From the NCBI GenBank assembly GCA_964016885.1, contig OZ024744.1:15128001-15192000 (forward strand): a DNA stretch of 64,000 nucleotides. The letters run 5' to 3'. Below, in pieces: positions 21,813 through 55,755 of this stretch. The first letter of the stretch is position 1. Every line of letters begins with the position of its first letter. This DNA is from Eledone cirrhosa. Its lineage: Eukaryota. Both the position numbers and the translations under genes were made by a program. Below the pieces are notes generated by a model. The model saw only the letters and a list, made by a program, of their open reading frames with translations, was not told the origin of the DNA and did no database searches.

Positions 21813-21884
21813 GTATTGTCAATACAACAAAGAATAGTAACATGATTGAAAATAGATAAATAATCATGAGATATTTTAAACCTG

Positions 21885-22500: not shown

Positions 22501-22600
22501 ATTAAGTACTGGTGTCAATATAATTAGTGATATTACTCTTGCAAACAGGTATGCGTGGCCTCGGTCAGAAATCAATGATCATAAAATGTGGTTTACTTAC

Positions 22601-22686: not shown

Positions 22687-23205
22687 CTATGAATGAAACA
22701 GGACAAAGTAAATATTCAAGAGGAGATGAAGAGGAAAGGGAGATATTCAGAATGTTTATATATATAACCAATGTTAATACAAAAAAAAAAAAAAATATAT
22801 GACAGATGTCCCGCCGCCACCAGAAGAGGATTGTTCTCTCTACTAAAGCAAAAATTAGCCCTGTAGGCACCCATGACAAACCTGTTTATTTCGCCCTATA
22901 GTCTGCATCACATTTCATCAATCCTTGACTTTCATTTACTCATGTCTTTCTTAGTCTTCCACATTTATTTCCATCACTCCTCACACCCAGTCATCCTTCC
23001 TTAATACACGATTAAATTGTTTCATTCCATTACCATAAGTCCTCAGTTTAGAACAGGTACACAACATTTTCACATCTTGTAAGATATGACTAGAAAGATA
23101 TCTGCCAGGAAAGGTATCTGGTAATAAAAAATTACCCCAAAGGCAGTCATAGTTCTATTTTATCTTTTTTTTAAAAGTTTCATGGAGTGGAGGATGTTAA
23201 TCCAC

Positions 23206-23364
23206 ATCATCCTCATCCTCATCTTGTTTAACGTCCATCTTCCATGCTAGCATAGATAGGACGGGCTGTCCCTTTGTGAGGGATCAGGTCGGGGGACAGT
23301 GATTCGCACACACAGAAATGATTTTAGCTTGGTTTCTATGGCTGGATGTCATTCCTAATGCCAA
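23206..23364 (-). mobile_element. RTE/SINE 3' end attached to the 48-bp satellite
   Basis: Degenerate (cat)n tail, aacgtccatcttccatgctagc, and gcttggtttctatggctggatgtcattcctaatgccaacc, which matches the reverse complement of 4860-4900, 62355-62400 and 63520-63565. Runs directly into the first monomer. Confidence 0.88.
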
Positions 23365-26300
23365 CCACATTTACAGTGTGGACTGGGTATTTTTGTCATG
23401 ACACCTACATGACCACTTTACAGTGTGGACTGGGTGCTTTTTGTTGTGACACCTACATGACCACTTTACAGTGTGGACTGGGTGCTTTTTGTTGTGACAC
23501 CTACATGACCACTTTACAGTGTGGACTGGGTGCTTTTTGTTGTGACACCTACATGACCACTTTACAGTGTGGACTGGGTGCTTTTTGTTGTGACACCTAC
23601 ATGACCACTTTACAGTGTGGACTGGGTGCTTTTTGTTGTGACACCTACATGACCACTTTACAGTGTGGACTGGGTGCTTTTTGTTGTGACACCTACATGA
23701 CCACTTTACAGAGTGGACTGGGTACTTTTTGTTGTGACACCTACACAACCACTTTACAGTGTGGACTGGGTACTTTTTGATGTGACACCTACATGACCAC
23801 TTTACAGTGTGGACTGGGTACTTTTTGTTGTGACACCTAGATGACCACTTTACAGTGTGGACTGGGTACTTTTTGTTGTGACACCTACATGACCACTTTA
23901 CAGTGTGGACTGGGTACTTTTTGATGTGACACCTACATGACCACTTTACAGTGTGGACTGGGTAGTTTTTGTTGTGACACCTACATGACCACTTTACAGT
24001 GTGGACTGGGTACTTTTTGTTGTGACACCTACATGACCACTTTACAGTGTGGACAAGGTACTTTTTGTTGTGACACCTACATGACCATTTTACAGTGTGT
24101 ACTGGGTACTTTTTGTTGTGACACCTACATCACCACTTTACAGTGTGACTGGGTAGTTTTTGTTGTGACACCTACATGACCACTTTACAGTGTGGACTGG
24201 GTACTTTTTGTTGTGACACCTACATGACCACTTTACAGTGTGGACTGGGTGCTTTTTGTTGTGACACCTACATGACCACTTTACAGTGTGGACTGGGTAG
24301 TTTTTGTTGTGACACCTACATGACCACTTTACAGTGTGGACTGGGTACTTTTTGTTGTGACACCTACATGACCACTTTACAGTGTGGACTGGGTGCTTTT
24401 TGTTGTGACACCTACACAACCACTTTACAGTGTGGACTGGGTAGTTTTTGTTGTGACACCTACATGACCACTTTACAGTGTGGACTGGGTACTTTTTGTT
24501 GTGACACCTACATGACCATTTTACAGTGTGGACTGGGTGCTTTTTGTTGTGACACCTACATGACCACTTTACAGTGTGGACTGGGTACTTTTTGTTATGA
24601 CACCTACATGACCACTTTACAGTGTGGACTGGGTAGTTTTTGTTGTGACACCTACATGACCACTTTACAGTGTAGACTGGGTAGTTTTTGTTGTGACACC
24701 TCCATCACCACTTTACAGTGTGGACTGGGTGTTTTTGTTGTGACACCTACATGACCACTTTACAGTGTGGACTGGGTACTTTTTGTTTTGACACCTACAT
24801 GACTTTACAGTGTGGACTGAGTACATTTTGTTGTAACACCTACATTACCACTTTACAGTGTGGACTGGGTACTTTTTGTCGTGACACCTACATGACCACT
24901 TTACAGTGTGGACTAGGTACTTTTGTCATGACACCTTCATGAGCACATTTACAGTGTGGACTGGGTGTTTTTGTTGTGACACCTACATGACCACTTTACA
25001 GTGTGGACTGGGTACTTTTTGTTGTGACATCTACATGACAACTTTACAGTGTGGACTGGATACTTTTTGTCATGACACCTACATGACCAATTTACAGTGT
25101 GGGCTGGGTGTTTTTGTTGTGACACATACATGACCACTTTACAGTGTGGACTGGGTACTTTTTGTTGTGACACCTACATGACCACTTTACAGTGTGGACT
25201 GGGTACTTTTTGTTGTGACACCTACATGACAACTTTACAGTGTGGACTGGATACTTTTTGTCATGACACCTTCATGACCACTTTACAGTGTGGACTGGGT
25301 ACTTTTGTTGTGACACCTACATGACCACTTTACAGTGTGGACTGAGTACTTTTTGTTGTGACACCTACATGACCACTTTACAGTGTGGACTAGGTACTTT
25401 TATCATGACACCTTCATGACTACATTTACAGTGTGGACTGGGTGTTTTTGTTGTGACACCTACACAACCACTTTACAGTGTGGACTGGGTGTTTTTGTTA
25501 TGACACCTACATGACCACCTTACAGTGTGGACTGGGTACTTTTTCACATGACACCTACATGACCACTTTACAGTGTGGACTGGGTACTTTTGTCATGACA
25601 CCTTCATGACCACATTTACAGTGTGGACTGGGTCCTCTTCGTCATGACACCAACATGACCACTTTACAGTGTGGACTGGGTCCATTTTGTCATGACACCT
25701 ACATGACCACTTTACAGTGTGGACTGGGTACTTTTTGTCATGACACCTTCATGACCACATTTACAGTGTGGACTGGGTGTTTTTGTTGTGACACCTACAT
25801 GACCACTTTACAGTGTGGACTGGGTACTTTTTGTCATGACACCTACATCACCACTTTACAGTGTGGACTAGGTACTTTTGTCATGACACCTACATGATCA
25901 CTTTACAGTGTGGACTGGGTATTTTTTGTCATGACACCTTTATGACCACATTTACAGTGTGGACTGGGTGTTTTTGTTGTGACACCTACACAACCACTTT
26001 ACAGTGTGGACTGGGTACTCTTTGCTGTGACACCTACATGACCACTTTAAAGTGTGGACTGGGTACTTTTTGTTGTGACACCTACATGAGCACTTTACAG
26101 TGTGGACTGGGTACTTTTTGTTGTGACACATACATGACCACTTTACAGTGTGGACTGGGTACTTTTTGTTGTGACACCTACATGACCACTTTACAGTGTG
26201 GACTGGGTACTGTTTGTTGTGACACCTACATGACCACTTTACAGTGTAGACTGTGTACTTTTTGTCGTAACACCTACATCACCTCTTTACAGTGTGAGCT

Positions 26301-29300
26301 GGGTACTTTTTGTCATGACACCTACATGACCACTTTACAGTGTGGACTGGGTACTTTTTGTTGTGACACGTACATGACCACTTTACAGTGTGGACTGGGT
26401 ACCTTTTTTCATGATACCTTCATGACCACTTTACAGTGTGGACTGGGTACCTTTTGTCATGACACTTACATGATCACTTTACCGTGTGGACTGGGTACTT
26501 TTTGTGATGACACCTACGTGACCACTTTACAGTGTGGACTGGGTGTTTTCGTTGTGACAGCTACATGACCACTTTACAGTGTGGACTGGGTACTTTTTGT
26601 CATGACACCTACATCACCACTTTACAGTGTGGACTAGGTACTTTTGTCATGACACCTACATGATCACTTTACAGTGTGGACTGGGTATTTTTTGTCATGA
26701 CACCTTTATGACCACATTTACAGTGTGGACTGGGTGTTTTTGTTGTGACACCTACACAACCACTTTACAGTGTGGACTGGGTACTCTTTGCTGTGACACC
26801 TACATGACCACTTTAAAGTGTGGACTGGGTACTTTTTGTTGTGACACCTACATGAGCACTTTACAGTGTGGACTGGGTACTTTTTGTTGTGACACATACA
26901 TGACCACTTTACAGTGTGGACTGGGTACTTTTTGTTGTGACACCTACATGACCACTTTACAGTGTGGACTGGGTACTGTTTGTTGTGACACCTACATGAC
27001 CACTTTACAGTGTAGACTGTGTACTTTTTGTCGTAACACCTACATCACCTCTTTACAGTGTGAGCTGGGTACTTTTTGTCATGACACCTACATGACCACT
27101 TTACAGTGTGGACTGGGTACTTTTTGTTGTGACACGTACATGACCACTTTACAGTGTGGACTAGGTACCTTTTTTCATGATACCTTCATGACCACTTTAC
27201 AGTGTGGACTGGGTACCTTTTGTCATGACACTTACATGATCACTTTACCGTGTGGACTAGGTACTTTTTGTGATGACACCTACGTGACCACTTTACAGTG
27301 TGGACTGGGTGTTTTCGTTGTGACACCTACATGACCACTTTACAGTGTGGACTGGGTACTTTTTGTCATAACACCTACATGACCACTTTACAGTGTGGAC
27401 AGGGCACTTTTTGTTGTGACACCTACATGACCACTTTACAGTGTGGACAGGGCACTTTTTGTTGTGACACCTACACAACCACTTTACAGTGTGGACTGGG
27501 TACTGTTTGTCGTGAAACCTACATGACCACTTTACAGTGTGGACTGGGTACTTTTTGTCGTGACACCTACATCACCACTTTACAGTGTGGACTAGGTACT
27601 TTTGTCATGACACCTTCATGACCACTTTACAGTGTGGACTGGGTACTTTTTGTCATAACACCTACATGACCACTTTACAGTGTGGACTGGGTACTTTTTG
27701 TTGTGACACCTACATGACCACTTTATAGTGTGGACTTGGTACTTTTTGTCGTGACACCTACATGACCACTTTACAGTGTGGACTAGGTACTTTTGTCATG
27801 ACACCTTCATGACCACTTTACAGTGTGGACTGGGTACTTTTTGTCATGACACCTTTATGACCACATTTACAGTGTAGACTGGGTGTTTTTGTTGACATCT
27901 ACATGACCACTTTACAGTGTGGACTGGGTACTTTTTGTTGTGAGACGTACATGACAACTTTACAGTGTGGACTGGGTACTTTTTGTCATGACACCTACAT
28001 GACCACTTTACAGTGTGGACTGGGTACATTTGTCATGTCCCCCTTCATGACCACATTTTTAGTGTGGACTGGATACTTTTTATCATGACACCAACATGAC
28101 CACTTTACAGTGTGGACTGGGTCAATTTTGTCATGACACCTACATGACCACCTTACAGTGTGGACTGGGTACTTTTTGTCATGACACCTTTATGACCACA
28201 TTTACAGTGTGGACTGGGTGTTTTTGTTGACATCTACATGACCACTTTACAGTGTGGACTGGATATTTTTTGTCATAACACCTACATGACCACTTTACAG
28301 TGTGGACTGGGTACTTTTGTTGTGACACCTACATGACCACTTTACAGTGTGGACTGGGTACTTTTTGCATGACACCTACCTGACCACTTTACAGTGTGGA
28401 CTGGGTACTTTTGTCATGACACCTTCATGACCACTTTACAGTGTGGACTGGGTACTTTTTGTCATGACACCTACATGACCTCTTTACAGTGTGTACTGGG
28501 TACTTTTTGCTGTGAGACCTACATGAACACTTTACAGTGTGGACTGGGTATTTTTGTTGTGACACCTACATGACCACTTTACAGTGTGGACTGGGTACTT
28601 TTTGTCATGACACATACATGACCACTTTACAGTGTGGACTGGGTACTTTTTGTCGTGACACCTACATGACCACTTTACAGTGTGGACTGGGTACTTTTTG
28701 TTATGACACCTACATGACCACTTTACAGTGTAGACTGGGTAGTTTTTGTTGTGACACCTCCATCACCACTTTACAGTGTGGACTGGGTGTTTTTGTTGGG
28801 ACACCTACATGACCACTTTACAGTGTGGACTGGGTACTTTTTGTTGTGACACCTACATGACCACTTTACAGTGTGGACTGAGTACATTTTGTTGTAACAC
28901 CTACATTACCACTTTACAGTGTGGACTGGGTACTTTTTGTCGTGACACCTACATGACCACTTTACAGTGTGGACTAGGTACTTTTGTCATGACACCTTCA
29001 TGAGCACATTTACAGTGTGGACTGGGTGTTTTTGTTGTGACACCTACATGACCACTTTACAGTGTGGACTGGGTACTTTTTGTTGTGACATCTACATGAC
29101 AACTTTACAGTGTGGACTGGATACTTTTTGTCATGACACCTACATGACCAATTTACAGTGTGGGCTGGGTGTTTTTGTTGTGACACATACATGACCACTT
29201 TACAGTGTGGACTGGGTACTTTTTGTTGTGACACCTACATGACCACTTTACAGTGTGGACTGGGTACTTTTTGTTGTGACACCTACATGACCACTTTACA

Positions 29301-32300
29301 GTGTGGACTGGGTGCTTTTGTCATGACATCTTCATGACCACTTTACAGTGTGGACTGGGTAGTTTTTGTCATGACACCTACATGACCACTTTATAGTGTG
29401 GACTGGGTACTTTTTGTCATGACACCAACATGACCACTTTACAGTGTGGACTGGGTCCTTTTTGTCATGACACCTACATGACCACTTTACAGTGTGGACT
29501 GGGTGTTTTTGTTGTGACACCTACATGACCACTTTACAATGTGGACTGGGTACTTTTGTTGTGACACCTACATGACCACTTTACAGTGTGCACTGGGTAC
29601 TTTTGTTGTGACACATACATGACCACTTTACAGTGTGGACTGGGTACTTTTTGTCATGACACCTACATGACCACTTTAGAGTGTGGACTGGGTGCTTTTG
29701 TCATGACACCTACATGACCACTTCACAGTGTGGACTGGGTACTTTTTGTCGTGACACCTACATGTCCACTTTACAGTGTGTACTGGGTACTTTTTGCTGT
29801 GACACCTACATGACCACTTTACAGTGTGGACTGGGTACTTTTTGTTGTGACACCTACGTGACCACTTTACAGTGTGGACTGGGTACGTTTTGTTGTGACA
29901 CCTACATGACCACTTTACAGTGTGTACTGGGTACTTTTTGCTGTGACACCTACATGACCACTTTACAGTGTGTACTGTGTACTTTTTGTTGTGACACCTA
30001 CATGACCACTTTACAGTGTGGACTGGGTACTTTTTGTCATAACACCTACATAACCACTTTACAGTATTGACTGGGTACTTTTTGTCATGACACCTACATG
30101 ACCACTTTACAGTGTGCACTGGGTACTTTTGTTGTGACACATACATGATCACTTCACATTGTGGACTGGGTACTTTTTGTCATGACACCTACATGACCAC
30201 TTTAGAGTGTGGACTGGGTGCTTTTGTCATGACACCTACATGACCAATTTACAGTGTGGGCTGGGTGTTTTTGTTGTGACACATACATGACCACTTTACA
30301 GTGTGGACTGGGTACTTATTGTCATGACACCAACATGACCACTTTACAGTGTGGACTGGGTACTTTTTGTCATGACACCTACATGACCACTTTACAGTGT
30401 GGACTGGGTCTTTTTGTTGTGACACCTTCATAACCACTTTACAGTGTGGACTGGGTACTTTTTGTTGTGACACCTGCATGACCACTTTACAGTGTGGACT
30501 GGGTACTTTTGTTGTGACACCTACATGACCACTTTACAGTGTGGACTGGGTACTTTTTGTCATAACACCTACATGACCACTTTACAGTGTGGACTGGGTA
30601 CTTTTTGTCATGATGCCTTCATGACCACTCTAGAGTGTGGACTGGGTGCTTTTGTCATGACACCTTCATGACCACTTCACAGTGTGGACTGGGTACTTTT
30701 TGTCGTGACACCTACATGACCACATTACAGTGTGGACTGGGTACTTTTTGTTGTGACACCTAGATGACCACTTTACAGTGTGCACTGGGTACTTTTGTTG
30801 TCACACATACATGATCACTTTACAGTGTGGACTGGGTACTTTTTGTCATGACACCTACATGACGACTTTAGAGTGTGGACTGGGTGCTTTTGTCATGACA
30901 CCTACATGACCACTTCACAGTGTGGACTAGGTACTTTTGTCATGACACCTTCATGAGCACATTTACAGTGTGGACTGGGTGTTTTTGTTGTGACACCTAC
31001 ATGACCACTTTACAGTGTGGACTGGGTACTTTTTGTTGTGACATCTACATGACAACTTTACAGTGTGGACTGGATACTTTTTGTCATGACACCTACATGA
31101 CCAATTTACAGTGTGGGCTGGGTGTTTTTGTTGTGACACATACATGACCACTTTACAGTGTGGACTGGGTACTTTTTGTTGTGACACCTACATGACCACT
31201 TTACAGTGTGGACTGGGTACTTTTTGTTGTGACACCTACATGACCACTTTACAGTGTGGACTGGGTGCTTTTGTCATGACATCTTCATGACCACTTTACA
31301 GTGTGGACTGGGTAGTTTTTGTCATGACACCTACATGACCACTTTATAGTGTGGACTGGGTACTTTTTGTCATGACACCAACATGACCACTTTACAGTGT
31401 GGACTGGGTCCTTTTTGTCATGACACCTACATGACCACTTTACAGTGTGGACTGGGTGTTTTTGTTGTGACACCTACATGACCACTTTACAATGTGGACT
31501 GGGTACTTTTGTTGTGACACCTACATGACCACTTTACAGTGTGCACTGGGTACTTTTGTTGTGACACATACATGACCACTTTACAGTGTGGACTGGGTAC
31601 TTTTTGTCATGACACCTACATGACCACTTTAGAGTGTGGACTGGGTGCTTTTGTCATGACACCTACATGACCACTTCACAGTGTGGACTGGGTACTTTTT
31701 GTCGTGACACCTACATGTCCACTTTACAGTGTGTACTGGGTACTTTTTGCTGTGACACCTACATGACCACTTTACAGTGTGGACTGGGTACTTTTTGTTG
31801 TGACACCTACGTGACCACTTTACAGTGTGGACTGGGTACGTTTTGTTGTGACACCTACATGACCACTTTACAGTGTGTACTGGGTACTTTTTGCTGTGAC
31901 ACCTACATGACCACTTTACAGTGTGTACTGTGTACTTTTTGTTGTGACACCTACATGACCACTTTACAGTGTGGACTGGGTACTTTTTGTCATAACACCT
32001 ACATAACCACTTTACAGTATTGACTGGGTACTTTTTGTCATGACACCTACATGACCACTTTACAGTGTGCACTGGGTACTTTTGTTGTGACACATACATG
32101 ATCACTTCACATTGTGGACTGGGTACTTTTTGTCATGACACCTACATGACCACTTTAGAGTGTGGACTGGGTGCTTTTGTCATGACACCTACATGACCAA
32201 TTTACAGTGTGGGCTGGGTGTTTTTGTTGTGACACATACATGACCACTTTACAGTGTGGACTGGGTACTTATTGTCATGACACCAACATGACCACTTTAC

Positions 32301-35300
32301 AGTGTGGACTGGGTACTTTTTGTCATGACACCTACATGACCACTTTACAGTGTGGACTGGGTCTTTTTGTTGTGACACCTTCATAACCACTTTACAGTGT
32401 GGACTGGGTACTTTTTGTTGTGACACCTGCATGACCACTTTACAGTGTGGACTGGGTACTTTTGTTGTGACACCTACATGACCACTTTACAGTGTGGACT
32501 GGGTACTTTTTGTCATAACACCTACATGACCACTTTACAGTGTGGACTGGGTACTTTTTGTCATGATGCCTTCATGACCACTCTAGAGTGTGGACTGGGT
32601 GCTTTTGTCATGACACCTTCATGACCACTTCACAGTGTGGACTGGGTACTTTTTGTCGTGACACCTACATGACCACATTACAGTGTGGACTGGGTACTTT
32701 TTGTTGTGACACCTAGATGACCACTTTACAGTGTGCACTGGGTACTTTTGTTGTCACACATACATGATCACTTTACAGTGTGGACTGGGTACTTTTTGTC
32801 ATGACACCTACATGACGACTTTAGAGTGTGGACTGGGTGCTTTTGTCATGACACCTACATGACCACTTCACAGTGTGGACTGGGTACTTTTTGTTGTGAC
32901 ACATACATGACCACTTTACAGTGTGGACTGGGTACTTTTTGCTGTGACACCTACATGACCACTTTACAGTGTGGACTGGGTACTTTTTGTTGTGACACCT
33001 AGGTGACCACTTTACAGTGTGGACTGGGTACGTTTTGTTGTGACACCTACATGACCACTTTACAGTGTGTACTGGGTACTTTTTGCTGTGACACCTACAT
33101 GACCACTTTACAGTGTGTACTGTGTACTTTTTGTTGTGACACCTACATGACCACTTTACAGTGTGGACTGGGTACTTTTTGTCATAACACCTACATAACC
33201 ACTTTACAGTATTGACTGGGTACTTTTTGTCATGACACCTACATGACCACTTTACAGTGTGCACTGGGTACTTTTGTTGTGACACATACATGATCACTTC
33301 ACATTGTGGACTGGGTACTTTTTGTCATGACACCTACATGACCACTTTAGAGTGTGGACTGGGTGCTTTTGTCATGACACCTTCATGACCACTTCACAGT
33401 GTGGACTGGGTACTTTTTGTCGTGACCTACATGACCACTTTACAGTATGGACTGGGTACTTTTTGTTGTGACACCTACATGACCACATTACAGTGTGGAC
33501 TGGGTACTTTTTGTTGTGACACCTAGATGACCACTTTACAGTGTGCACTGGGTACTTTTGTTGTCACACATACATGATCACTTTACAGTGTGGACTGGGT
33601 ACTTTTTGTCATGACACCTACATGACCACTTTAGAGTGTGGACTGGGTGCTTTTGTCATGACACCTACATGACCAATTTACAGTGTGGGCTGGGTGTTTT
33701 TGTTGTGACACATACATGACCACTTTACAGTGTGGACTGGGTACTTATTGTCATGACACCAACATGACCACTTTACAGTGTGGACTGGGTACTTTTTGTC
33801 ATGACACCTACATGACCACTTTACAGTGTGGACTGGGTCTTTTTGTTGTGACACCTTCATAACCACTTTACAGTGTGGACTGGGTACTTTTTGTTGTGAC
33901 ACCTGCATGACCACTTTACAGTGTGGACTGGGTACTTTTGTTGTGACACCTACATGACCACTTTACAGTGTGGACTGGGTACTTTTTGTCATAACACCTA
34001 CATGACCACTTTACAGTGTGGACTGGGTACTTTTTGTCATGATGCCTTCATGACCACTCTAGAGTGTGGACTGGGTGCTTTTGTCATGACACCTTCATGA
34101 CCACTTCACAGTGTGGACTGGGTACTTTTTGTCGTGACACCTACATGACCACATTACAGTGTGGACTGGGTACTTTTTGTTGTGACACCTAGATGACCAC
34201 TTTACAGTGTGCACTGGGTACTTTTGTTGTCACACATACATGATCACTTTACAGTGTGGACTGGGTACTTTTTGTCATGACACCTACATGACGACTTTAG
34301 AGTGTGGACTGGGTGCTTTTGTCATGACACCTACATGACCACTTCACAGTGTGGACTGGGTACTTTTTGTTGTGACACATACATGACCACTTTACAGTGT
34401 GGACTGGGTACTTTTTGCTGTGACACCTACATGACCACTTTACAGTGTGGACTGGGTACTTTTTGTTGTGACACCTAGGTGACCACTTTACAGTGTGGAC
34501 TGGGTACGTTTTGTTGTGACACCTACATGACCACTTTACAGTGTGTACTGGGTACTTTTTGCTGTGACACCTACATGACCACTTTACAGTGTGTACTGTG
34601 TACTTTTTGTTGTGACACCTACATGACCACTTTACAGTGTGGACTGGGTACTTTTTGTCATAACACCTACATAACCACTTTACAGTATTGACTGGGTACT
34701 TTTTGTCATGACACCTACATGACCACTTTACAGTGTGCACTGGGTACTTTTGTTGTGACACATACATGATCACTTCACATTGTGGACTGGGTACTTTTTG
34801 TCATGACACCTACATGACCACTTTAGAGTGTGGACTGGGTGCTTTTGTCATGACACCTTCATGACCACTTCACAGTGTGGACTGGGTACTTTTTGTCGTG
34901 ACCTACATGACCACTTTACAGTATGGACTGGGTACTTTTTGTTGTGACACCTACATGACCACATTACAGTGTGGACTGGGTACTTTTTGTTGTGACACCT
35001 AGATGACCACTTTACAGTGTGCACTGGGTACTTTTGTTGTCACACATACATGATCACTTTACAGTGTGGACTGGGTACTTTTTGTCATGACACCTACATG
35101 ACCACTTTACAGTGTGGACTGGGTACTTTTTGTCATGACACCTACATGACCACTTTACAGTGTGGACTGGGTACTTTTTGTCATGACACCTACATGACCA
35201 CTTTACAGTGTGGACTGTGTAGTTTTTGTCATAACACCTACATGACCACTTTACAGTATGGACTGGATACTTGTTGCCATGACAAATACATGACCACTTT

Positions 35301-41300: not shown

Positions 41301-44300
41301 CCTACATGACCACTTTACAGTGTGCACTGGGTACTTTTGTTGTGACACATACATGATCACTTCACATTGTGGACTGGGTACATTTTGTCATGACACCTAC
41401 ATGACCACTTTAGAGTGTGGACTGGGTGCTTTTGTCATGACACCTCCATGACCACTTTACAGTGTGGACTGGGTAGTTTTTGTCATGACACCTACATGAC
41501 CACTTTACAGTGTGGACTGGGTACTTATTGTCATGACACCAACATGACCACTTTACAGTGTGGACTGGGTACTTTTTGTCATGACACCTACATGACCACT
41601 TTACAGTGTGGACTGGGTCTTTTTGTTGTGACACCTTCATAACCACTTTACAGTGTGGACTGGGTACTTTTTGTTGTGACACCTGCATGACCACTTTACA
41701 GTGTGGACTGGGTACTTTTGTTGTGACACCTACATGACCACTTTACAGTGTGGACTGGGTACTTTTTGTCATAACACCTACATGACCACTTTACAGTGTG
41801 GACTGGGTACTTTTTGTCATGATATCTTCATGACCACTCTAGAGTGTGGACTGGGTGCTTTTGTCATGACACCTTCATGACCACTTCACAGTGTGGACTG
41901 GGTACTTTTTGTCGTGACCTACATGACCACTTTACAGTATGGACTGGGTACTTTTTGTTGTGACACCTACATGACCACATTACAGTGTGGACTGGGTACT
42001 TTTTGTTGTGACACCTAGATGACCACTTTACAGTGTGCACTGGGTACTTTTGTTGTGACACATACATGATCACTTTACAGTGTGGACTGGGTACTTTTTG
42101 TCATGACACCTACATGACCACTTTACAGTGTGGACTGGGTAATTTTTGCTGTGACACCTACATGACCACTTTACAGTGTGGACTGGGTAGTTTTTGTCAT
42201 AACACCTACATGACCACTTTACAGTATGGACTGGATACTTGTTGCCATGACAAATACATGACCACTTTACAGTGTGGACTGTGTACTTTCTGTCATGACA
42301 CCTACATGACCACTTTACAGTGTGGACTGGGTACTTTTTGTCATAACACCTACATGACCACTTTACAGTGTGGACTGGGTAGTTTTTGTCATAACACCTA
42401 CATGACCACTTTACAATATGGACTGGATACTTGTTGCCATGACAAATACATGACCACTTTACAGTGTGGACTGGGTACTTTTTGTTGTGACACCTGCATG
42501 ACCACTTTACAGTGTGCACTGGGTACTTTTGTTGTGACACATACATGATCACTTCACATTGTGGACTGGGTACTTTTTGTCATGACACCTACATGACCAC
42601 TTTAGAGTGTGGACTGGGTGCTTTTGTCATGACACCTACATGACCAATTTACAGTGTGGGCTGGGTGTTTTTGTTGTGACACATACATGACCACTTTACA
42701 GTGTGGACTGGGTACTTATTGTCATGACACCAACATGACCACTTTACAGTGTGGACTGGGTACTTTTTGTCATGACACCTACATGACCACTTTACAGTGT
42801 GGACTGGGTCTTTTTGTTGTGACACCTTCATAACCACTTTACAGTGTGGACTGGGTACTTTTTGTTGTGACACCTGCATGACCACTTTACAGTGTGGACT
42901 GGGTACTTTTGTTGTGACACCTACATGACCACTTTACAGTGTGGACTGGGTACTTTTTGTCATAACACCTACATGACCACTTTACAGTGTGGACTGGGTA
43001 CTTTTTGTCATGATGCCTTCATGACCACTCTAGAGTGTGGACTGGGTGCTTTTGTCATGACACCTTCATGACCACTTCACAGTGTGGACTGGGTACTTTT
43101 TGTCGTGACACCTACATGACCACATTACAGTGTGGACTGGGTACTTTTTGTTGTGACACCTAGATGACCACTTTACAGTGTGCACTGGGTACTTTTGTTG
43201 TCACACATACATGATCACTTTACAGTGTGGACTGGGTACTTTTTGTCATGACACCTACATGACGACTTTAGAGTGTGGACTGGGTGCTTTTGTCATGACA
43301 CCTACATGACCACTTCACAGTGTGGACTGGGTACTTTTTGTTGTGACACATACATGACCACTTTACAGTGTGGACTGGGTACTTTTTGCTGTGACACCTA
43401 CATGACCACTTTACAGTGTGGACTGGGTACTTTTTGTTGTGACACCTAGGTGACCACTTTACAGTGTGGACTGGGTACGTTTTGTTGTGACACCTACATG
43501 ACCACTTTACAGTGTGTACTGGGTACTTTTTGCTGTGACACCTACATGACCACTTTACAGTGTGTACTGTGTACTTTTTGTTGTGACACCTACATGACCA
43601 CTTTACAGTGTGGACTGGGTACTTTTTGTCATAACACCTACATAACCACTTTACAGTATTGACTGGGTACTTTTTGTCATGACACCTACATGACCACTTT
43701 ACAGTGTGCACTGGGTACTTTTGTTGTGACACATACATGATCACTTCACATTGTGGACTGGGTACTTTTTGTCATGACACCTACATGACCACTTTAGAGT
43801 GTGGACTGGGTGCTTTTGTCATGACACCTTCATGACCACTTCACAGTGTGGACTGGGTACTTTTTGTCGTGACCTACATGACCACTTTACAGTATGGACT
43901 GGGTACTTTTTGTTGTGACACCTACATGACCACATTACAGTGTGGACTGGGTACTTTTTGTTGTGACACCTAGATGACCACTTTACAGTGTGCACTGGGT
44001 ACTTTTGTTGTCACACATACATGATCACTTTACAGTGTGGACTGGGTACTTTTTGTCATGACACCTACATGACCACTTTACAGTGTGGACTGGGTACTTT
44101 TTGTCATGACACCTACATGACCACTTTACAGTGTGGACTGGGTACTTTTTGTCATGACACCTACATGACCACTTTACAGTGTGGACTGGGTAGTTTTTGT
44201 CATAACACCTACATGACCACTTTACAGTATGGACTGGATACTTGTTGCCATGACAAATACATGACCACTTTACAGTGTGGACTGGGTACTTTTTGTTGTG

Positions 44301-47300
44301 ACACCTGCATGACCACTTTACAGTGTGCACTGGGTACTTTTTGTTGTGGCACCTACATGACCACTTTACAGTGTGGACTGGGTAGTTTTTGTCATAACAC
44401 CTACATGACCACTTTACAGTATGGACTGGATACTTGTTGCCATGACAAATACATGACCACTTTACAGTGTGGACTGGGTACTTTTTGTTGTGACACCTGC
44501 ATGACCACTTTACAGTGTGCACTGGGTACTTTTTGTTATGACACCTACATGACCACTTTACAGTGTAGACTGGGTAGTTTTTGTTGTGACACCTCCATCA
44601 CCACTTTACAGTGTGGACTGGGTGTTTTTGTTGGGACACCTACATGACCACTTTACAGTGTGGACTGGGTACTTTTTGTTGTGACACCTACATGACCACT
44701 TTACAGTGTGGACTGAGTACATTTTGTTGTAACACCTACATGACCACTTTACAGTGTGGACTGGGTACTTTTTGTCGTGACACCTACATGACCACTTTAC
44801 AGTGTGGACTAGGTACTTTTGTCATGACACCTTCATGAGCACATTTACAGTGTGGACTGGGTGTTTTTGTTGTGAAACCTACATGACCACTTTACAGTGT
44901 GGACTGGGTACTTTTTGTTGTGACATCTACATGACAACTTTACAGTGTGGACTGGATACTTTTTGTCATGACACCTACATGACCAATTTACAGTGTGGGC
45001 TGGGTGTTTTTGTTGTGACACCTACATGACCACTTTACAGTGTGGACTGGGTACTTTTTGTTGTGACACCTACATGACCACTTTACAGTGTGGACTGGGT
45101 ACTTTTTGTTGTGACACCTACATGACCACTTTACAGTGTGGACTGGGTGCTTTTGTCATGACATCTTCATGACCACTTTACAGTGTGGACTGGGTAGTTT
45201 TTGTCATGACACCTACATGACCACTTTATAGTGTGGACTGGGTACTTTTTGTCATGACACCTACATGACCACTTTAGAGTGTGGACTGGGTGCTTTTGTC
45301 ATGACACCTACACGACCACTTCACAGTGTGGACTGGGTACTTTTTGTCGTGACACCTACATGTCCACTTTACAGTGTGTACTGGGTACTTTTTGCTGTGA
45401 CACCTACATGACCACTTTACAGTGTGGACTGGGTACTTTTTGTTGTGACACCTACATGACCACTTTACAGTGTGGACTGGGTACGTTTTGTTGTGACACC
45501 TACATGACCACTTTACAGTGTGTACTGGGTACTTTTTGCTGTGACACCTACATGACCACTTTACAGTGTGTACTGGGTACTTTTTGTTGTGACACCTACA
45601 TGACCACTTTACAGTGTGGACTGGGTACTTTTTGTCATAACACCTACATAACCACTTTACAGTATGGACTGGGTACTTTTTGTCATGACACCTACATGAC
45701 CACTTTACAGTGTGCACTGGGTACTTTTGTTGTGACACATACATGATCACTTCACATTGTGGACTGGGTACATTTTGTCATGACACCTACATGACCACTT
45801 TAGAGTGTGGACTGGGTGCTTTTGTCATGACACCTCCATGACCACTTTACAGTGTGGACTGGGTAGTTTTTGTCATGACACCTACATGACCACTTTACAG
45901 TGTGGACTGGGTACTTATTGTCATGACACCAACATGACCACTTTACAGTGTGGACTGGGTACTTTTTGTCATGACACCTACATGACCACTTTACAGTGTG
46001 GACTGGGTCTTTTTGTTGTGACACCTTCATAACCACTTTACAGTGTGGACTGGATACTTTTTGTTGTGACACCTGCATGACCACTTTACAGTGTGGACTG
46101 GGTACTTTTGTTGTGACACCTACATGACCACTTTACAGTGTGGACTGGGTACTTTTTGTCATAACACCTACATGACCACTTTACAGTGTGGACTGGGTAC
46201 TTTTTGTCATGATACCTTCATGACCACTCTAGAGTGTGGACTGGGTGCTTTTGTCATGACACCTTCATGACCACTTCACAGTGTGGACTGGGTACTTTTT
46301 GTCGTGACCTACATGACCACTTTACAGTATGGACTGGGTACTTTTTGTTGTGACACCTACATGACCACATTACAGTGTGGACTGGGTACTTTTTGTTGTG
46401 ACACCTAGATGACCACTTTACAGTGTGCACTGGGTACTTTTGTTGTGACACATACATGATCACTTTACAGTGTGGACTGGGTACTTTTTGTCATGACACC
46501 TACATGACCACTTTACAGTGTGGACTGGGTAATTTTTGCTGTGACACCTACATGACCACTTTACAGTGTGGACTGCGTAGTTTTTGTCATAACACCTACA
46601 TGACCACTTTACAGTATGGACTGGATACTTGTTGCCATGACAAATACATGACCACTTTACAGTGTGGACTGGGTACTTTCTGTCATGACACCTACATGAC
46701 CACTTTACAGTGTGGACTGGGTACTTTTTGTCATAACACCTACATGACCACTTTACAGTGTGGACTGGGTAGTTTTTGTCATAACACCTACATGACCACT
46801 TTACAGTATGGACTGGATACTTGTTGCCATGACAAATACATGACCACTTTACAGTGTGGACTGGGTACTTTTTGTTGTGACACCTGCATGACCACTTTAC
46901 AGTGTGCACTGGGTACTTTTTGTTGTGGCACCTACATGACCACTTTACAGTGTGGACTGGGTAGTTTTTGTCATAACACCTACATGACCACTTTACAGTA
47001 TGGACTGGATACTTGTTGCCATGACAAATACATGACCACTTTACAGTGTGGACTGGGTACTTTTTGTCATGATACCTTCATGACCACTTTACAGTGTGCA
47101 CTGGGTACTTTTTGTTGTGGCACCTACATGACCACTTTACAGTATGGACTGGGTACTTTTTGCCATGACACGTACATGACCACTTTACAGCGTGGAGTGG
47201 GTGTTTTTGTTGTGACACCTACATGACGCCTTTACAGTGTGGACTGGTAACTTTTGTCATGACACCTACATGACCACTTTACAGTGTGGACTGGGTACTT

Positions 47301-50300
47301 TTTGTCATGACACATACATGACCACTTTACAGTGTGGACTGGGTACTTTTTGTCGTGACACCTACATGACCACTTTACAGTGTGGACTGGGTACTTTTTG
47401 TTATGACACCTACATGACCACTTTACAGTGTAGACTGGGTAGTTTTTGTTGTGACACCTCCATCACCACTTTACAGTGTGGACTGGGTGTTTTTGTTGGG
47501 ACACCTACATGACCACTTTACAGTGTGGACTGGGTACTTTTTGTTGTGACACCTACATGACCACTTTACAGTGTGGACTGAGTACATTTTGTTGTAACAC
47601 CTACATGACCACTTTACAGTGTGGACTGGGTACTTTTTGTCGTGACACCTACATGACCACTTTACAGTGTGGACTAGGTACTTTTGTCATGACACCTTCA
47701 TGAGCACATTTACAGTGTGGACTGGGTGTTTTTGTTGTGACACCTACATGACCACTTTACAGTGTGGACTGGGTACTTTTTGTTGTGACATCAACATGAC
47801 AACTTTACAGTGTGGACTGGGTACTTTTTGTTGTGACACCTACATCACCACTTTACAGTGTGGACTGGGTGCTTTTGTCATGACATCTTCATGACCACTT
47901 TACAGTGTGGACTGGGTAGTTTTTGTCATGACACCTACATGACCACTTTATAGTGTGGACTGGGTACTTTTTGTCATGACACCTACATGACCACTTTAGA
48001 GTCTGGACTGGGTGCTTTTGTCATGACACCTACATGACCACTTCACAGTGTGGACCGGGTACTTTTTGTCGTGACACCTACATGACCACTTTACAGTGTG
48101 GACTGGGTACTTTTTGTTGTGACACCTACATGACCACTTTACAGTGTGGACTGGGTACGTTTTGTTGTGACACCTACATGACCACTTTACAGTGTGTACT
48201 GGGTACTTTTTGCTGCGACACCTACATGACCACTTTACAGTGTGTACTGGGTACTTTTTGTTGTGACACCTACATGACCACTTTACAGTGTGGACTGGGT
48301 ACTTTTTGTCATAACACCTACATAACCACTTTACAGTATGGACTGGGTACGTTTTGTCATGACACCTACATGACCACTTTACAGTGTGCACTGGGTACTT
48401 TTGTTGTGACACATACATGATCACTTCACATTGTGGACTGGGTACATTTTGTCATGACACCTACATGACCACTTTAGAGTGTGGACTGGGTGCTTTTGTC
48501 ATGACACCTCCATGACCACTTTACAGTGTGGACTGGGTAGTTTTTGTCATGACACCTACATGACCACTTTACAGTGTGGACTGGGTACTTATTGTCATGA
48601 CACCAACATGACCACTTTACAGTGTGGACTGGGTACTTTTTGTCATGACACCTACATGACCACTTTACAGTGTGGACTGGGTCTTTTTGTTGTGACACCT
48701 TCATAACCACTTTACAGTGTGGACTGGGTACTTTTTGTTGTGACACCTGCATGACCACTTTACAGTGTGGACTGGGTACTTTTGTTGTGACACCTACATG
48801 ACCACTTTACAGTGTGGACTGGGTACTTTTTGTCATAACACCTACATGACCACTTTACAGTGTGGACTGGGTACTTTTTGTCATGATACCTTCATGACCA
48901 CTCTAGAGTGTGGACTGGGTGCTTTTGTCATGACACCTTCATGACCACTTCACAGTGTGGACTGGGTACTTTTTGTCGTGACCTACATGACCACTTTACA
49001 GTATGGACTGGGTACTTTTTGTTGTGACACCTACATGACCACATTACAGTGTGGACTGGGTACTTTTTGTTGTGACACCTAGATGACCACTTTACAGTGT
49101 GCACTGGGTACTTTTGTTGTGACACATACATGATCACTTTACAGTGTGGACTGGGTACTTTTTGTCATGACACCTACATGACCACTTTACAGTGTGGACT
49201 GGGTACTTTTTGCTGTGACACCTACATGACCACTTTACAGTGTGGACTGGGTAGTTTTTGTCATAACACCTACATGACCACTTTACAGTATGGACTGGAT
49301 ACTTGTTGCCATGACAAATACATGACCACTTTACAGTGTGGACTGGGTACTTTTTGTCATGACACCTACATGACCACTTTACAGTGTGGACTGGGTACTT
49401 TTTGTCATGACACCTACATGACCACTTTACAGTGTGGACTGGGTAGTTTTTGTCATAACACCTACATGACCACTTTACAGTATGGACTGGATACTTGTTG
49501 CCATGACAAATACATGACCACTTTACAGTGTGGACTGGGTACTTTTTGTTGTGACACCTGCATGACCACTTTACAGTGTGCACTGGGTACTTTTTGTTGT
49601 GGCACCTACATGACCACTTTACAGTGTGGACTGGGTAGTTTTTGTCATAACACCTACATGACCACTTTACAGTATGGACTGGATACTTGTTGCCATGACA
49701 AATACATGACCACTTTACAGTGTGGACTGGGTACTTTTTGTTGTGACACCTGCATGACCACTTTACAGTGTGCACTGGGTACTTTTTGTTGTGGCACCTA
49801 CATGACCACTTTACAGTATGGACTGGGTACTTTTTGCCATGACACGTACATGACCACTTTACAGCGTGGAGTGGGTGTTTTTGTTGTGACACCTACATGA
49901 CGCCTTTACAGTGTGGACTGGTAACTTTTGTCATGACACCTACATGACCACTTTACAGTGTGGACTGGGTACTTTTTGTCATGACACATACATGACCACT
50001 TTACAGTGTGGACTGGGTACTTTTTGTCGTGACACCTACATGACCACTTTACAGTGTGGACTGGGTACTTTTTGTTATGACACCTACATGACCACTTTAC
50101 AGTGTAGACTGGGTAGTTTTTGTTGTGACACCTCCATCACCACTTTACAGTGTGGACTGGGTGTTTTTGTTGGGAGACCTACATGACCACTTTACAGTGT
50201 GGACTGGGTACTTTTTGTTGTGACACCTACATGACCACTTTACAGTGTGGACTGAGTACATTTTGTTGTAACACCTACATGACCACTTTACAGTGTGGAC

Positions 50301-53300
50301 TGGGTACTTTTTGTCGTGACACCTACATGACCACTTTACAGTGTGGACTAGGTACTTTTGTCATGACACCTTCATGAGCACATTTACAGTGTGGACTGGG
50401 TGTTTTTGTTGTGACACCTACATGACCACTTTACAGTGTGGACTGGGTACTTTTTGTTGTGACATCTACATGACAACTTTACAGTGTGGACTGGATACTT
50501 TTTGTCATGACACCTACATGACCAATTTACAGTGTGGGCTGGGTGTTTTTGTTGTGACACCTACATGACCACTTTACAGTGTGGACTGGGTACTTTTTGT
50601 TGTGACACCTACATGACCACTTTACAGTGTGGACTGGGTACTTTTTGTTGTGACACCTACATGACCACTTTACAGTGTGGACTGGGTGCTTTTGTCATGA
50701 CATCTTCATGACCACTTTACAGTGTGGACTGGGTAGTTTTTGTCATGACACCTACATGACCACTTTATAGTGTGGACTGGGTACTTTTTGTCATGACACC
50801 AACATGACCACTTTACAGTGTGGACTGGGTCCTTTTTATCATGACACCTACATGACCACTTTACAGTGTGGACTGGGTGTTTTTGTTGTGACACCTACAT
50901 GACCACTTTACAGTGTGGACTGGGTACTTTTGTTGTGACACCTACATGACCACTTTACAGTGTGCACTGGGTACTTTTGTTGTGACACATACATGACCAC
51001 TTTACAGTGTGGGCTGGGTACTTTTTGTCATGACACCTACATGACCACTTTAGAGTGTGGACTGGGTGCTTTTGTCATGACACCTACATGACCACTTCAC
51101 AGTGTGGACTGGGTACTTTTTGTCGTGACACCTACATGTCCACTTTACAGTGTGTACTGGGTACTTTTTGCTGTGACACCTACATGACCACTTTACAGTG
51201 TGGACTGGGTACTTTTTGTTGTGACACCTACATGACCACTTTACAGTGTGGACTGGGTACGTTTTGTTGTGACACCTACATGACCACTTTACAGTTTGTA
51301 CTGGGTACTTTTTGCTGTGACACCTACATGACCACTTTACAGTGTGTACTGGGTACTTTTTGTTGTGACACCTACATGACCACTTTACAGTGTGGACTGG
51401 GTACTTTTTGTCATAACACCTACATAACCACTTTACAGTATGGACTGGGTACTTTTTGTCATGACACCTACATGACCACTTTACAGTGTGCACTGGGTAC
51501 TTTTGTTGTGACACATACATGATCACTTCACATTGTGGACTGGGTACATTTTGTCATGACACCTACATGACCACTTTAGAGTGTGGACTGGGTGCTTTTG
51601 TCATGACACCTCCATGACCACTTTACAGTGTGGACTGGGTAGTTTCTGTCATGACACCTACATGACCACTTTACAGTGTGGACTGGGTACTTATTGTCAT
51701 GACACCAACATGACCACTTTACAGTGTGGACTGGGTACTTTTTGTCATGACACCTACATGACCACTTTACAGTGTGGACTGGGTCTTTTTGTTGTGACAC
51801 CTTCATAACCACTTTACAGTGTGGACTGGGTACTTTTTGTTGTGACACCTACATGACCACTTTACAGTGTGGACTGGGTACTTTTTGTCATAACACCTAC
51901 ATGACCACTTTACAGTGTGGACTGGGTACTTTTTGTCATGATACCTTCATGACCACTCTAGAGTGTGGACTGGGTGCTTTTGTCATGACACCTTCATGAC
52001 CACTTCACAGTGTGGACTGGGTACTTTTTGTCGTGACCTACATGACCAATTTACAGTATGGACTGGGTACTTTTTGTTGTGACACCTACATGACCACATT
52101 ACAGTGTGGACTGGGTACTTTTTGTTGTGACACCTAGATGACCACTTTACAGTGTGCACTGGGTACTTTTGTTGTGACACATACATGATCACTTTACAGT
52201 GTGGACTGGGTACTTTTTGTCATGACACCTACATGACCACTTTACAGTGTGGACTGGGTACTTTTTGCTGTGACACCTACATGACTACTTTACAGTGTGG
52301 ACTGGGTAGTTTTTGTCATAACACCTACATGACCACTTTACAGTATGGACTGGATACTTGTTGCCATGACAAAAACATGACCACTTTACAGTGTGGACTG
52401 GGTACTTTTTGTCGTGACACCTACATGACCACTTTACAGTGTGGACTGGGTACTTTTTGTTATGACACCTACATGACCACTTTACAGTGTAGACTGGGTA
52501 GTTTTTGTTGTGACACCTCCATCACCACTTTACAGTGTGGACTGGGTGTTTTTGTTGGGAGACCTACATGACCACTTTACAGTGTGGACTGGGTACTTTT
52601 TGTTGTGACACCTACATGACCACTTTACAGTGTGGACTGAGTACATTTTGTTGTAACACCTACATGACCACTTTACAGTGTGGACTGGGTACTTTTTGTC
52701 GTGACACCTACATGACCACTTTACAGTGTGGACTAGGTACTTTTGTCATGACACCTTCATGAGCACATTTACAGTGTGGACTGGGTGTTTTTGTTGTGAC
52801 ACCTACATGACCACTTTACAGTGTGGACTGGGTACTTTTTGTTGTGACATCTACATGACAACTTTACAGTGTGGACTGGATACTTTTTGTCATGACACCT
52901 ACATGACCAATTTACAGTGTGGGCTGGGTGTTTTTGTTGTGACACCTACATGACCACTTTACAGTGTGGACTGGGTACTTTTTGTTGTGACACCTACATG
53001 ACCACTTTACAGTGTGGACTGGGTACTTTTTGTTGTGACACCTACATGACCACTTTACAGTGTGGACTGGGTGCTTTTGTCATGACATCTTCATGACCAC
53101 TTTACAGTGTGGACTGGGTAGTTTTTGTCATGACACCTACATGACCACTTTATAGTGTGGACTGGGTACTTTTTGTCATGACACCAACATGACCACTTTA
53201 CAGTGTGGACTGGGTCCTTTTTATCATGACACCTACATGACCACTTTACAGTGTGGACTGGGTGTTTTTGTTGTGACACCTACATGACCACTTTACAGTG

Positions 53301-55755
53301 TGGACTGGGTACTTTTGTTGTGACACCTACATGACCACTTTACAGTGTGCACTGGGTACTTTTGTTGTGACACATACATGACCACTTTACAGTGTGGGCT
53401 GGGTACTTTTTGTCATGACACCTACATGACCACTTTAGAGTGTGGACTGGGTGCTTTTGTCATGACACCTACATGACCACTTCACAGTGTGGACTGGGTA
53501 CTTTTTGTCGTGACACCTACATGTCCACTTTACAGTGTGTACTGGGTACTTTTTGCTGTGACACCTACATGACCACTTTACAGTGTGGACTGGGTACTTT
53601 TTGTTGTGACACCTACATGACCACTTTACAGTGTGGACTGGGTACGTTTTGTTGTGACACCTACATGACCACTTTACAGTTTGTACTGGGTACTTTTTGC
53701 TGTGACACCTACATGACCACTTTACAGTGTGTACTGGGTACTTTTTGTTGTGACACCTACATGACCACTTTACAGTGTGGACTGGGTACTTTTTGTCATA
53801 ACACCTACATAACCACTTTACAGTATGGACTGGGTACTTTTTGTCATGACACCTACATGACCACTTTACAGTGTGCACTGGGTACTTTTGTTGTGACACA
53901 TACATGATCACTTCACATTGTGGACTGGGTACATTTTGTCATGACACCTACATGACCACTTTAGAGTGTGGACTGGGTGCTTTTGTCATGACACCTCCAT
54001 GACCACTTTACAGTGTGGACTGGGTAGTTTCTGTCATGACACCTACATGACCACTTTACAGTGTGGACTGGGTACTTATTGTCATGACACCAACATGACC
54101 ACTTTACAGTGTGGACTGGGTACTTTTTGTCATGACACCTACATGACCACTTTACAGTGTGGACTGGGTCTTTTTGTTGTGACACCTTCATAACCACTTT
54201 ACAGTGTGGACTGGGTACTTTTTGTTGTGACACCTGCATGACCACTTTACAGTGTGGACTGGGTACTTTTGTTGTGACACCTACATGACCACTTTACAGT
54301 GTGGACTGGGTACTTTTTGTCATAACACCTACATGACCACTTTACAGTGTGGACTGGGTACTTTTTGTCATGATACCTTCATGACCACTCTAGAGTGTGG
54401 ACTGGGTGCTTTTGTCATGACACCTTCATGACCACTTCACAGTGTGGACTGGGTACTTTTTGTCGTGACCTACATGACCAATTTACAGTATGGACTGGGT
54501 ACTTTTTGTTGTGACACCTACATGACCACATTACAGTGTGGACTGGGTACTTTTTGTTGTGACACCTAGATGACCACTTTACAGTGTGCACTGGGTACTT
54601 TTGTTGTGACACATACATGATCACTTTACAGTGTGGACTGGGTACTTTTTGTCATGACACCTACATGACCACTTTACAGTGTGGACTGGGTACTTTTTGC
54701 TGTGACACCTACATGACTACTTTACAGTGTGGACTGGGTAGTTTTTGTCATAACACCTACATGACCACTTTACAGTATGGACTGGATACTTGTTGCCATG
54801 ACAAATACATGACCACTTTACAGTGTGGACTGGGTACTTTTCGTTGTGACACCTGCATGACCACTTTACAGTGTGCACTGGGTACTTTTTGTTGTGGCAC
54901 CTACATGACCACTTTACAGTATGGACTGGTTACTTTTTGCCATGACACGTACATGACCACTTTACAGCGTGGAGTGGGTGTTTTTGTTGTGACACCTACA
55001 TGACGCCTTTACAGTGTGGACTGGTAACTTTTGTCATGACACCTACATGACCACTTTACAGTGTGGACTGGGTACTTTTGTCATGATACCTTCATGACCA
55101 CTTTATAGTGTGGACTGGGTACTTTTTGTCATGACACCTACATGACCACTTTACCGTGTGGACTGGGTACTTTTTATCATGACACCAACATGACCACTTC
55201 ACAGTGTGGACTGGGTCCTTTTTGTCATGACACCTACATGACCACTTTACAGCGTGGACTGGGTGTTTTTGTTGTGACACCTACATGACCACTTTACAGT
55301 GTGGACTGGGTGCTTTTGTCATGATACCTACATGACCACTTTACAGTGTGGACTGGTTGCTTTTGTCATGATACCTTCATGACCACTTTACAGTGTGGAC
55401 TGAGTAGTTTTTGTCATGACACCTACGTGACCACTCTACCGTGTGGACTGGGTACTTTTTGTTGTGACATCTACATGACCACTTTACAGTGTATATTGGG
55501 TACTTTTTGTCATAACACCTACATGTCCACTTTACAGTGTGGACTGGGTACTTTTTGTTGTGACACCTACATGACCACTTTACAGTGTGGACTGGGTACT
55601 TTTGTTGTGATACCTACATGACCACTTTACAGTGTGGACTGGGTGATTTTTGTTGTGACACCTACATGACCACTTTACAGTGTGGACTGAGTACTTTTGT
55701 CGTGACACCTACATGACCACTTTACAGCGTGGACTGGGTACTTTTTGTTGTGACA
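23365..55755. repeat. 48-bp tandem satellite, ~32.4 kb (~675 copies), with nested higher-order repeats
   Basis: Consensus gtggactgggtactttttgt(tg/ca)tgacacctacatgaccactttacagt. Identical ORF-track translations recur at offsets of 766, 1953, 1476, 4390/4581, 2674 and 2385 bp. Confidence 0.98.

Follow-up and report, generated by a model that had tools for sequence, protein, structure and literature searches.

A 48-bp satellite joined to the 3' end of its parent

A 64,000-nucleotide stretch of the Eledone cirrhosa genome (assembly GCA_964016885.1, contig OZ024744.1, positions 15,128,001 to 15,192,000 of the forward strand; hereafter the window, numbered from its first letter) contains exons of the adenylate kinase 7 gene (AK7), RTE retrotransposons and related elements, and a satellite of 48-bp units lying in an AK7 intron. 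The satellite unit is an RTE domain of the 5'-untranslated region (5'-UTR) type, which dispersed RTE and short interspersed element (SINE) copies carry once between short direct repeats, and the 3' remainder of a parent element is still attached to the array. The array and its two ends, including the far end at which target-site duplications (TSDs) were sought, are as follows.

23364 to 55755, minus strand: 48-bp satellite, 678 full units and a 26-nt partial unit at the element 5' end (Tandem Repeats Finder, TRF, and segmentation)
23205 to 23378, minus strand: 3' remainder of the parent, with the downstream direct repeat, a conserved RTE 5'-UTR-type motif, a spacer, the RTE 3' end and a degenerate (GAT)n (alignment)
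55730 to 55755, minus strand: far end, a partial unit (positions 23-48) that abuts unrelated DNA, without upstream element and without TSD

An initial annotation, made from the sequence alone, had described an array of about 675 copies, and this was borne out. TRF gave a period of 48, 678.8 copies and 89% matches for 23364-55755, that is, 32.4 kb of a fixed head-to-tail monomer (length as assembled), and segmentation on the minus strand yielded 678 full units plus the 26-nt partial unit at the far end; one pseudo-unit within the tail was excluded before the later counts.

Four elements elsewhere in the window, three with a single-unit module and one with the same domain in a 5' UTR upstream of an open reading frame (ORF), carry sequence related to the unit:

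4800 to 5026, plus strand: single-unit module and tail on a 5'-truncated RTE (3846-5026) of a related subfamily (alignment)
62298 to 62471, plus strand: single-unit module in a SINE-like element with a head at ~62140-62297 and a short RTE 3' end (alignment, anatomy)
63463 to 63684, plus strand: single-unit module and tail on a 5'-truncated RTE (62527-63684) (alignment)
9144 to 9331, minus strand: same domain in the 5' UTR, upstream of the ORF, of a near-full-length RTE (6248-9331), as an 89-bp tandem (alignment, TRF)

The clade label RTE for these parent elements is our assumption, taken from anatomy and not from a reverse-transcriptase tree, and we likewise take the element at 62298-62471 to be a SINE by its anatomy; ARAGORN found no tRNA. 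The monomer had been equated with the motif in the copies at 4801, 62299 and 63464, and this identification was upheld: the best local score of the 48-bp consensus against the window outside the array was 63, compared with 24.3 +/- 2.1 and a maximum of 33 for 300 dinucleotide shuffles. With 14 more nucleotides the consensus aligns at 49/60 (4801), 47/58 (62299) and 46/60 (63464) positions, and the monomer originally given is one of two common unit variants. The direct repeat CACTGYAAA reported to bound the unit was found again with a spacing of 49 bp at 62299/62348 and 63464/63513; at 4801 the spacing is 50 bp and the second repeat has degenerated. The sequence shared by the SINE-like element and both RTE copies begins one base ahead of the unit start.

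Unit positions 17-48 and the repeat that follows them match 9144-9331 (38/45 and 39/46). This match lies upstream of an RTE ORF, and the module is therefore a 5'-UTR domain joined to a 3' end, the bipartite RTE design: an RTE 5'-UTR segment is followed by an RTE 3' end with a microsatellite tail. The 89-bp tandem at 9144-9331 ends at the same motif as the 48-bp unit and was duplicated independently. More direct repeats occur at 8960-9110, just downstream of it.

The rest of the element was found left of the array in the same orientation, as first described. The tail (23425-23205, minus strand) is 75% identical to 4801-5026 over 228 columns (E 6e-35) and 72% identical to 63464-63684; it has the orientation of the units, continues them in register and ends as a degenerate (GAT)n. 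A contig from sequencing run X1 covering 22470-23253 connects the end of the tail to the unique flank with 0 differences. At the other side, the first base of the array is unit position 23, and the 22 nt that would lead up to the upstream direct repeat are missing. Comparisons of the far flank with upstream parent sequence were no better than shuffles (4/4), and the two flanks of the array share no TSD, their longest common word being 7 nt, in agreement with the original description of this end. Parent sequence thus flanks the 48-bp array on the tail side only, and not on both sides.

The tail of the array differs by 28-29% from the tails at 4801, 63464 and 12570, compared with 9.5% between 4801 and 63464, which places the local copies in another subfamily. 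Judged by this divergence, they are cousins of the array and not its progenitors. What stands of the proposal that the satellite lies together with its progenitor is the origin from an RTE/SINE 3' module, the bounding repeat and the in-register tail; the local copies do not hold as the parents.

The unit had also been read as the counterpart of coding sequence. The ORF at 63015 does end in PTAKWSWRCQGKKAP, with five more residues, but its end is not supported as a coding counterpart of the frame in the array. A coding origin of the 48-bp unit was rejected: the same frame in the sister copy stops before the motif, and the corresponding point is also where a database relative (P0003) terminates. 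A frameshift in the 63015 copy is the likely reason why its ORF reads through, and the unit itself is untranslated. Pfam gave no name to the 63015 ORF, and the translated plus-strand frame of the array had no protein match among 1914 candidates. A ribozyme or structured-RNA origin (retrozyme type) was rejected as well, without Rfam support and with folding no better than shuffles: Rfam gave 0 matches in 23100-25000, with no self-cleaving ribozyme found in the monomer, and the 21 and 31 weak matches near the parent copies included none either; whole-module folding gave z values of -0.25 to -1.47. At the 48-bp boundary itself a small hairpin with a GYAA loop forms in 4/6 folded sequences (5 counting a 4-bp form), and the hairpin columns vary slightly less than the remainder (0.036 vs 0.050). 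Pattern scans for other copies of the array sequence found none in metagenome contigs, viral contigs or prokaryote genomes.

Internal structure of the 48-bp array

A two-letter dimorphism divides the 678 units (23378-55729) into TG (293), CA (330) and CG (42) types. The tail-adjacent unit carries TG, as does the 4801 copy, and units 2-32 are without it. Only 160 distinct sequences occur among the units, and 576/678 of them lie in near-identical blocks of 8-94 units. The largest duplication comprises 94 units (4581 bp) with 1 difference; blocks of 41 units (1953 bp), 38 units and 31 units have 0 differences, and older blocks have up to ten. The duplications, of 16-96 units, are nested, at lags of 16 to 498 units, and a left-to-right parse resolved the array into 26 copied phrases and 176 new units. 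Amplification of ~675-fold as one process, as originally envisaged, does not fit these counts of blocks and distinct units.

Units 1-30 and 660-678 are outside every block. The 30 tail-proximal units differ from the consensus at 1.5 positions per unit, mid-array units at 3.2 and far-end units at 4.2; the tail-proximal units, nearest to the consensus, contain identical runs. Near-perfect nested duplications of 0.8-4.6 kb in mid-array and unit-scale homogenisation beside the tail are the pattern that would be expected of unit-scale slippage followed by repeated unequal exchange. The array was not dated by a borrowed rate because homogenisation resets unit divergence. No function is implied for it, and it is likely tolerated intron filler.

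The 43-bp array and other tandem repeats

A second large array in the window, and a smaller one beside a long interspersed element (LINE), also adjoin retrotransposon sequence:

14353 to 21812, minus strand: 43-bp satellite, 172 units, from a C-terminal coding stretch of an RTE ORF; far end mid-unit (TRF, alignment)
14210 to 14352, minus strand: 3' remainder of the RTE that parented the 43-bp array, ORF C-terminus open (tblastn)
55961 to 56437, plus strand: broken C-terminal ORF of a second, distantly related LINE (sequence matches)
56411 to 57169, plus strand: 41-bp array, ~18 units, presumably from the last codons of the 55961 LINE ORF (TRF; origin from position only)

The 43-bp array is built as the 48-bp array is, but from the end of an RTE ORF. 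It has the minus-strand orientation, with the RTE 3' end on the left and a mid-unit stop on the right. Its tail still encodes the ORF C-terminus (tblastn of P0003 to 14456-14235, E 5e-8), and the unit can be aligned, but for a 7-nt deletion, with coding sequence immediately upstream; the monomer by itself gives a modest score (41 vs a maximum of 37 in 200 shuffles). Of its 172 units 117 are distinct, and no TSD was found around it (longest shared word 7 nt). Both tails sit attached to their arrays within 10 kb. Pfam named neither the 14214-14351 peptide nor the 55961 ORF fragment; relatives of the latter include one from Littorina. The 41-bp array begins at the last codons of the LINE ORF and lies downstream of it.

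Arrays of 59, 47 and 78 bp are located at 3251-3533, 57384-57554 and 59773-60725, and for the 59-, 41-, 47- and 78-bp arrays no parent elsewhere in the window scored above shuffles (4/4). An element at 22044-22159 (also at 11849-11965 and 61777-61882) is dispersed and very abundant, with the highest summed depth in the contig comparison; in some contigs it occurs in tandem, with joints that go back 115-117 nt, and it is a possible further array seed.

The host gene

Four minus-strand exons bounded by AG/GT chain in phase between 13949 and 60949:

60839 to 60949, minus strand: AK7 exon, residues 167-202 (E 1.1e-11)
58558 to 58641, minus strand: likely AK7 exon of 28 codons, without a match by itself, which fits the gap 204-231 by length and phase
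22601 to 22686, minus strand: AK7 exon, residues 233-259, bounding the 35.9-kb intron with the 48-bp array (E 0.15, both matches AK7)
13949 to 14039, minus strand: AK7 exon, residues 261-290, bounding the 8.6-kb intron with the 43-bp array (E 0.26, 2/9 matches AK7)

AK7 has an axonemal role. All three introns between the identified exons contain tandem arrays. Smaller arrays included, these account for 93% of the longest intron (35.9 kb), 87% of the next (8.6 kb) and 43% of the shortest (2.2 kb). The 48-bp and 43-bp arrays run sense to AK7, and neither AATAAA nor ATTAAA occurs in them on the sense strand. No further AK7 exons were identified among the candidates in 2950-13950 or 60950-64000. 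The distance between the 78-bp array and an AK7 exon is ~110 nt. Neither the host gene nor the 43-bp twin array figured in the initial annotation.

Dispersed RTE and SINE copies

The RTE copies at 3846-5026 and 62527-63684 are 87% alike, and both have, beyond the ORF end, ~280 nt of additional 3' UTR that includes the bipartite SINE-type module. Each is likely a LINE with a swapped-in SINE-like tail that was still mobile afterwards. Apart from the array, four RTE copies in the window are 5'-truncated. No TSD was found at four dispersed RTE copies, at which the longest shared word was 6 nt or none. A related element at 139-2974, in frameshifted pieces, has Exo_endo_phos_2, RVT_1 and PHD domains, in line with the single ORF with AP endonuclease and reverse transcriptase of the RTE clade. 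Among 120 relatives listed, the only named eukaryotic match was to Octopus bimaculoides (29% of the query covered, 73% identity).

Copies of a short (CA/TA)-rich motif flank the SINE-like element as well as the adjacent RTE (62090-62520 and 63690-63790), and the two elements look sequentially inserted into one simple repeat. A mariner-type DNA transposon remnant with inverted ends (9560-10938; Transposase_1, E 3e-21) is inserted in (TA)n, and an inverted repeat resembling a miniature inverted-repeat transposable element (13762-13891) is flanked by (TA)n; Rfam miRNA matches to the latter fall far below threshold.

Multi-unit copies at other loci

Contigs from four of eight listed sequencing runs (X1, X4 and X5 among them, X4 being labelled as from a second organism, B) were compared with positions 21740-23500. 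The comparison lists 24 pieces, with 262,154 more beyond the list, and the figures on extending pieces apply to the 24 alone. Past 23425, where a single-unit parent would end, 10/24 pieces extend at ~85-91% identity: 2 from X1 (records 7-8), 3 from X4 (records 14-16) and 5 from X5 (records 20-24). At this identity the extending pieces come from other loci, so that copies with the tail and 2-3 units exist elsewhere and in the second organism. Joints going back 96 nt were seen in 4/4 runs; in organism A these may derive from the 48-bp array itself.

Summed X1 depth was 6-20 on unique flank and 3.8-5.1 million on the 48-bp unit, vs ~1,400 expected from the locus alone; on the 43-bp unit it was 735 vs ~616 expected (81 in organism B). 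Summed depth is no copy number and counts in single-unit relatives, and it is the contrast between the two arrays that is relied on. The 43-bp array looks locus-specific.

Origin of the 48-bp array

A single-unit copy cut at unit position 23 would lack the first 22 nt and therefore could not regenerate the unit. Given the mid-unit far end without upstream element, either two or more units were present in the seed from the outset or a later deletion removed the 5' part, and the copies with tail and 2-3 units elsewhere favour the multi-unit seed. We therefore consider it somewhat more probable than its alternatives together that the array arose from a 5'-truncated retrocopy that already carried at least two units, and that slippage and unequal exchange then enlarged it in place. 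Seeding at this site from one unit, as first proposed, is at odds with a far end at unit position 23 without upstream element.

By this route, the starting material would be the RTE 5'-UTR-type domain as it is seen in dispersed copies, single between two short direct repeats. Mispairing of the direct repeats may then have produced dimers and trimers in a subfamily that was still retrotransposing, of which the copies with tail and several units at other loci would be representatives. Reverse transcription of one multi-unit RNA, starting at its (GAT)n end, would have placed a copy in the intron, on the sense strand of the gene, and truncated it within a unit. Homogenisation and nested duplications, as seen in the array, would have followed, with unequal sister-chromatid exchange as their probable cause.

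Several observations weigh against this account. No TSD, the mark of a single retrotransposed insertion, joins the two ends, and the four dispersed RTE copies are also without TSD. Among the contigs listed, none that is identical to the window spans 23364; X1 could be the source sample, and the contig comparison covers 21740-23500. The multi-unit loci elsewhere may be independent duplications and not one mobile subfamily, and the summed depth that suggests their abundance is no copy number and takes in single-unit relatives. The 43-bp array, seemingly locus-specific, ends just as bluntly on its far side, and a multi-unit subfamily that existed beforehand leaves this unexplained. On the direction from transposon to satellite the evidence points both ways: the domain is in the RTE 5' UTR, yet the second organism also has multi-unit copies.

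Birth at this site from a single-unit copy, with a later deletion from the array into the flank that removed the upstream repeat and the 5' part of the element, is credible but unlikely. Direct repeats bound the unit in single-unit copies, the register at the tail junction is perfect, a deletion of this kind would also erase a TSD, and the direct-repeat route is established for Alu minisatellites (PMC3389668; PMC6947457). This explanation needs a second event, and likewise for the 43-bp array, and multi-unit copies are already present elsewhere.

Rather unlikely, in our judgement, is seeding by the RTE reverse transcriptase during insertion, in which the enzyme would stall near the 5' end of its template, re-prime on a short repeat and write tandem units. 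It predicts every array to consist of tail, units and a blunt mid-unit end, and both large arrays (2/2), from different RTE parts, reach the 5' end of the element exactly, without unrepeated element sequence. Alone among the readings, it accounts for both arrays without calling on a further event. The apparent locus-specificity of the 43-bp array favours it. The hairpin with a GYAA loop coincides with the boundary at which the SINE and both RTE copies stop sharing sequence; its signal is weak, given the folding of the whole module and the small difference between columns. Moreover, there are two cases only, and the 41-bp array, downstream of its ORF, has the opposite arrangement. In a broader form, satellites in this lineage (likely octopods) would be a product of RTE retrotransposition itself: at the 5' junction the reverse transcriptase would re-prime on short repeats and write tandem seeds. 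We regard this as a doubtful proposal: if true, three arrays in two neighbouring introns of the same ciliary gene were seeded from different RTE segments, and introns in these genomes may have a main route of growth here.

The length of 32 kb could also have been inflated in assembly, with perfect multi-kb blocks duplicated in silico, a quite improbable addition to the retrocopy route that does not exclude it. Blocks of 31-41 units have 0 differences and one of 94 units has 1. Yet the divergence between nested blocks is graded, from 0 to 10 differences at lags of 16 to 498 units, which is what a series of real duplications would leave, and 160 distinct and 176 non-copied units set a floor of ~8 kb for the array even if its perfect blocks are artefacts. 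That the satellite is older and the RTE/SINE module captured one of its units is highly improbable: the shared module does start at the unit boundary in 3/3 dispersed copies and the unit family appears abundant in two organisms, but unit positions 17-48 and the repeat match an RTE 5' UTR, possibly of the kind reported to be conserved across animal RTEs (PMC5786205), and for the 43-bp unit, which derives from sequence that codes for RTE protein, the direction is clear.

Comparison with known systems

Satellites born from transposons are a known principle. Searches by title and abstract, with most subscription papers, Repbase, Dfam and the O. vulgaris library (where it may be annotated) outside their scope, gave no RTE-derived or octopus satellite of this kind. 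In the text available from two satellite reviews (PMC9659126, PMC12628747) the word 'RTE' has 0 occurrences, and that of the octopus repeat papers PMC13282606 and PMC12988792 ('satellite' 0 times) holds nothing on RTE-derived satellites.

The first copies of a satellite are usually hidden because arrays lose their parents. An attached in-register tail, relatives with a single unit and with 2-3 units, and a second array derived from coding sequence make the question of seeding countable. In two introns of a conserved gene, about nine tenths of the length consists of arrays born from retrotransposons, and such arrays may contribute to the large size of cephalopod introns. A loose parallel is seen in Drosophila, where the giant introns of kl-3 and kl-5 (PMC6508621) are mostly tandem DNA in ciliary/flagellar genes, but they measure megabases and consist of simple repeats, whereas the AK7 intron is 36 kb of complex retrotransposon-derived units.

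The module itself resembles the bipartite RTE derivatives and Ceph-SINEs described by Kojima (PMC5786205), in which an internal RTE 5'-UTR domain is joined to an RTE 3' end in many SINEs, tails are exchanged between elements, and some RTEs have the domain twice. A Ceph-SINE is characterised by a tRNA head and a Ceph domain with one CORE-like and one RTE-derived half. Satellites are not described in the available part of that work, and here the module also ends autonomous-type RTE copies (4801, 63464).

Alu minisatellites are seeded between direct repeats of 5-20 bp (PMC3389668, PMC6947457), and the 48-bp unit is likewise an internal segment with a short bounding direct repeat, as in the Haber-Louis model (Jurka and Gentles, cited in the same two papers): a bounding repeat at unit spacing is present in 2/3 single-unit copies and degenerate in the third. 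Transposon-derived repeats without such flanking repeats are, however, described as mostly of two units, whereas this array has 678 units, 32 kb, multi-kb blocks and the 3' flank only. The Ogre-derived satellites of Lathyrus and pea (FabTR, PisTR-A; PMC7004042) are similar in having short in-element arrays at many loci, some of them long and still joined to the element. They derive from plant long terminal repeat (LTR) elements and are mainly centromeric; the present array comes from a non-LTR RTE module, lacks the 5' part and lies in a gene intron.

Catalogued satellites derived from LINEs include the cetacean common satellite (L1 3' end), chicken HinfI (CR1 3' UTR and ORF2), PROsat and 18HT, and Hy/Pol III derives from a SINE (PMC9659126, PMC6947457). 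Their monomers, like those described here, are homologous to the 3' region or the ORF of a non-LTR element. Those satellites are described as recognised by monomer similarity, whereas at the AK7 locus the tail of the parent is physically attached to the array, and this twice.

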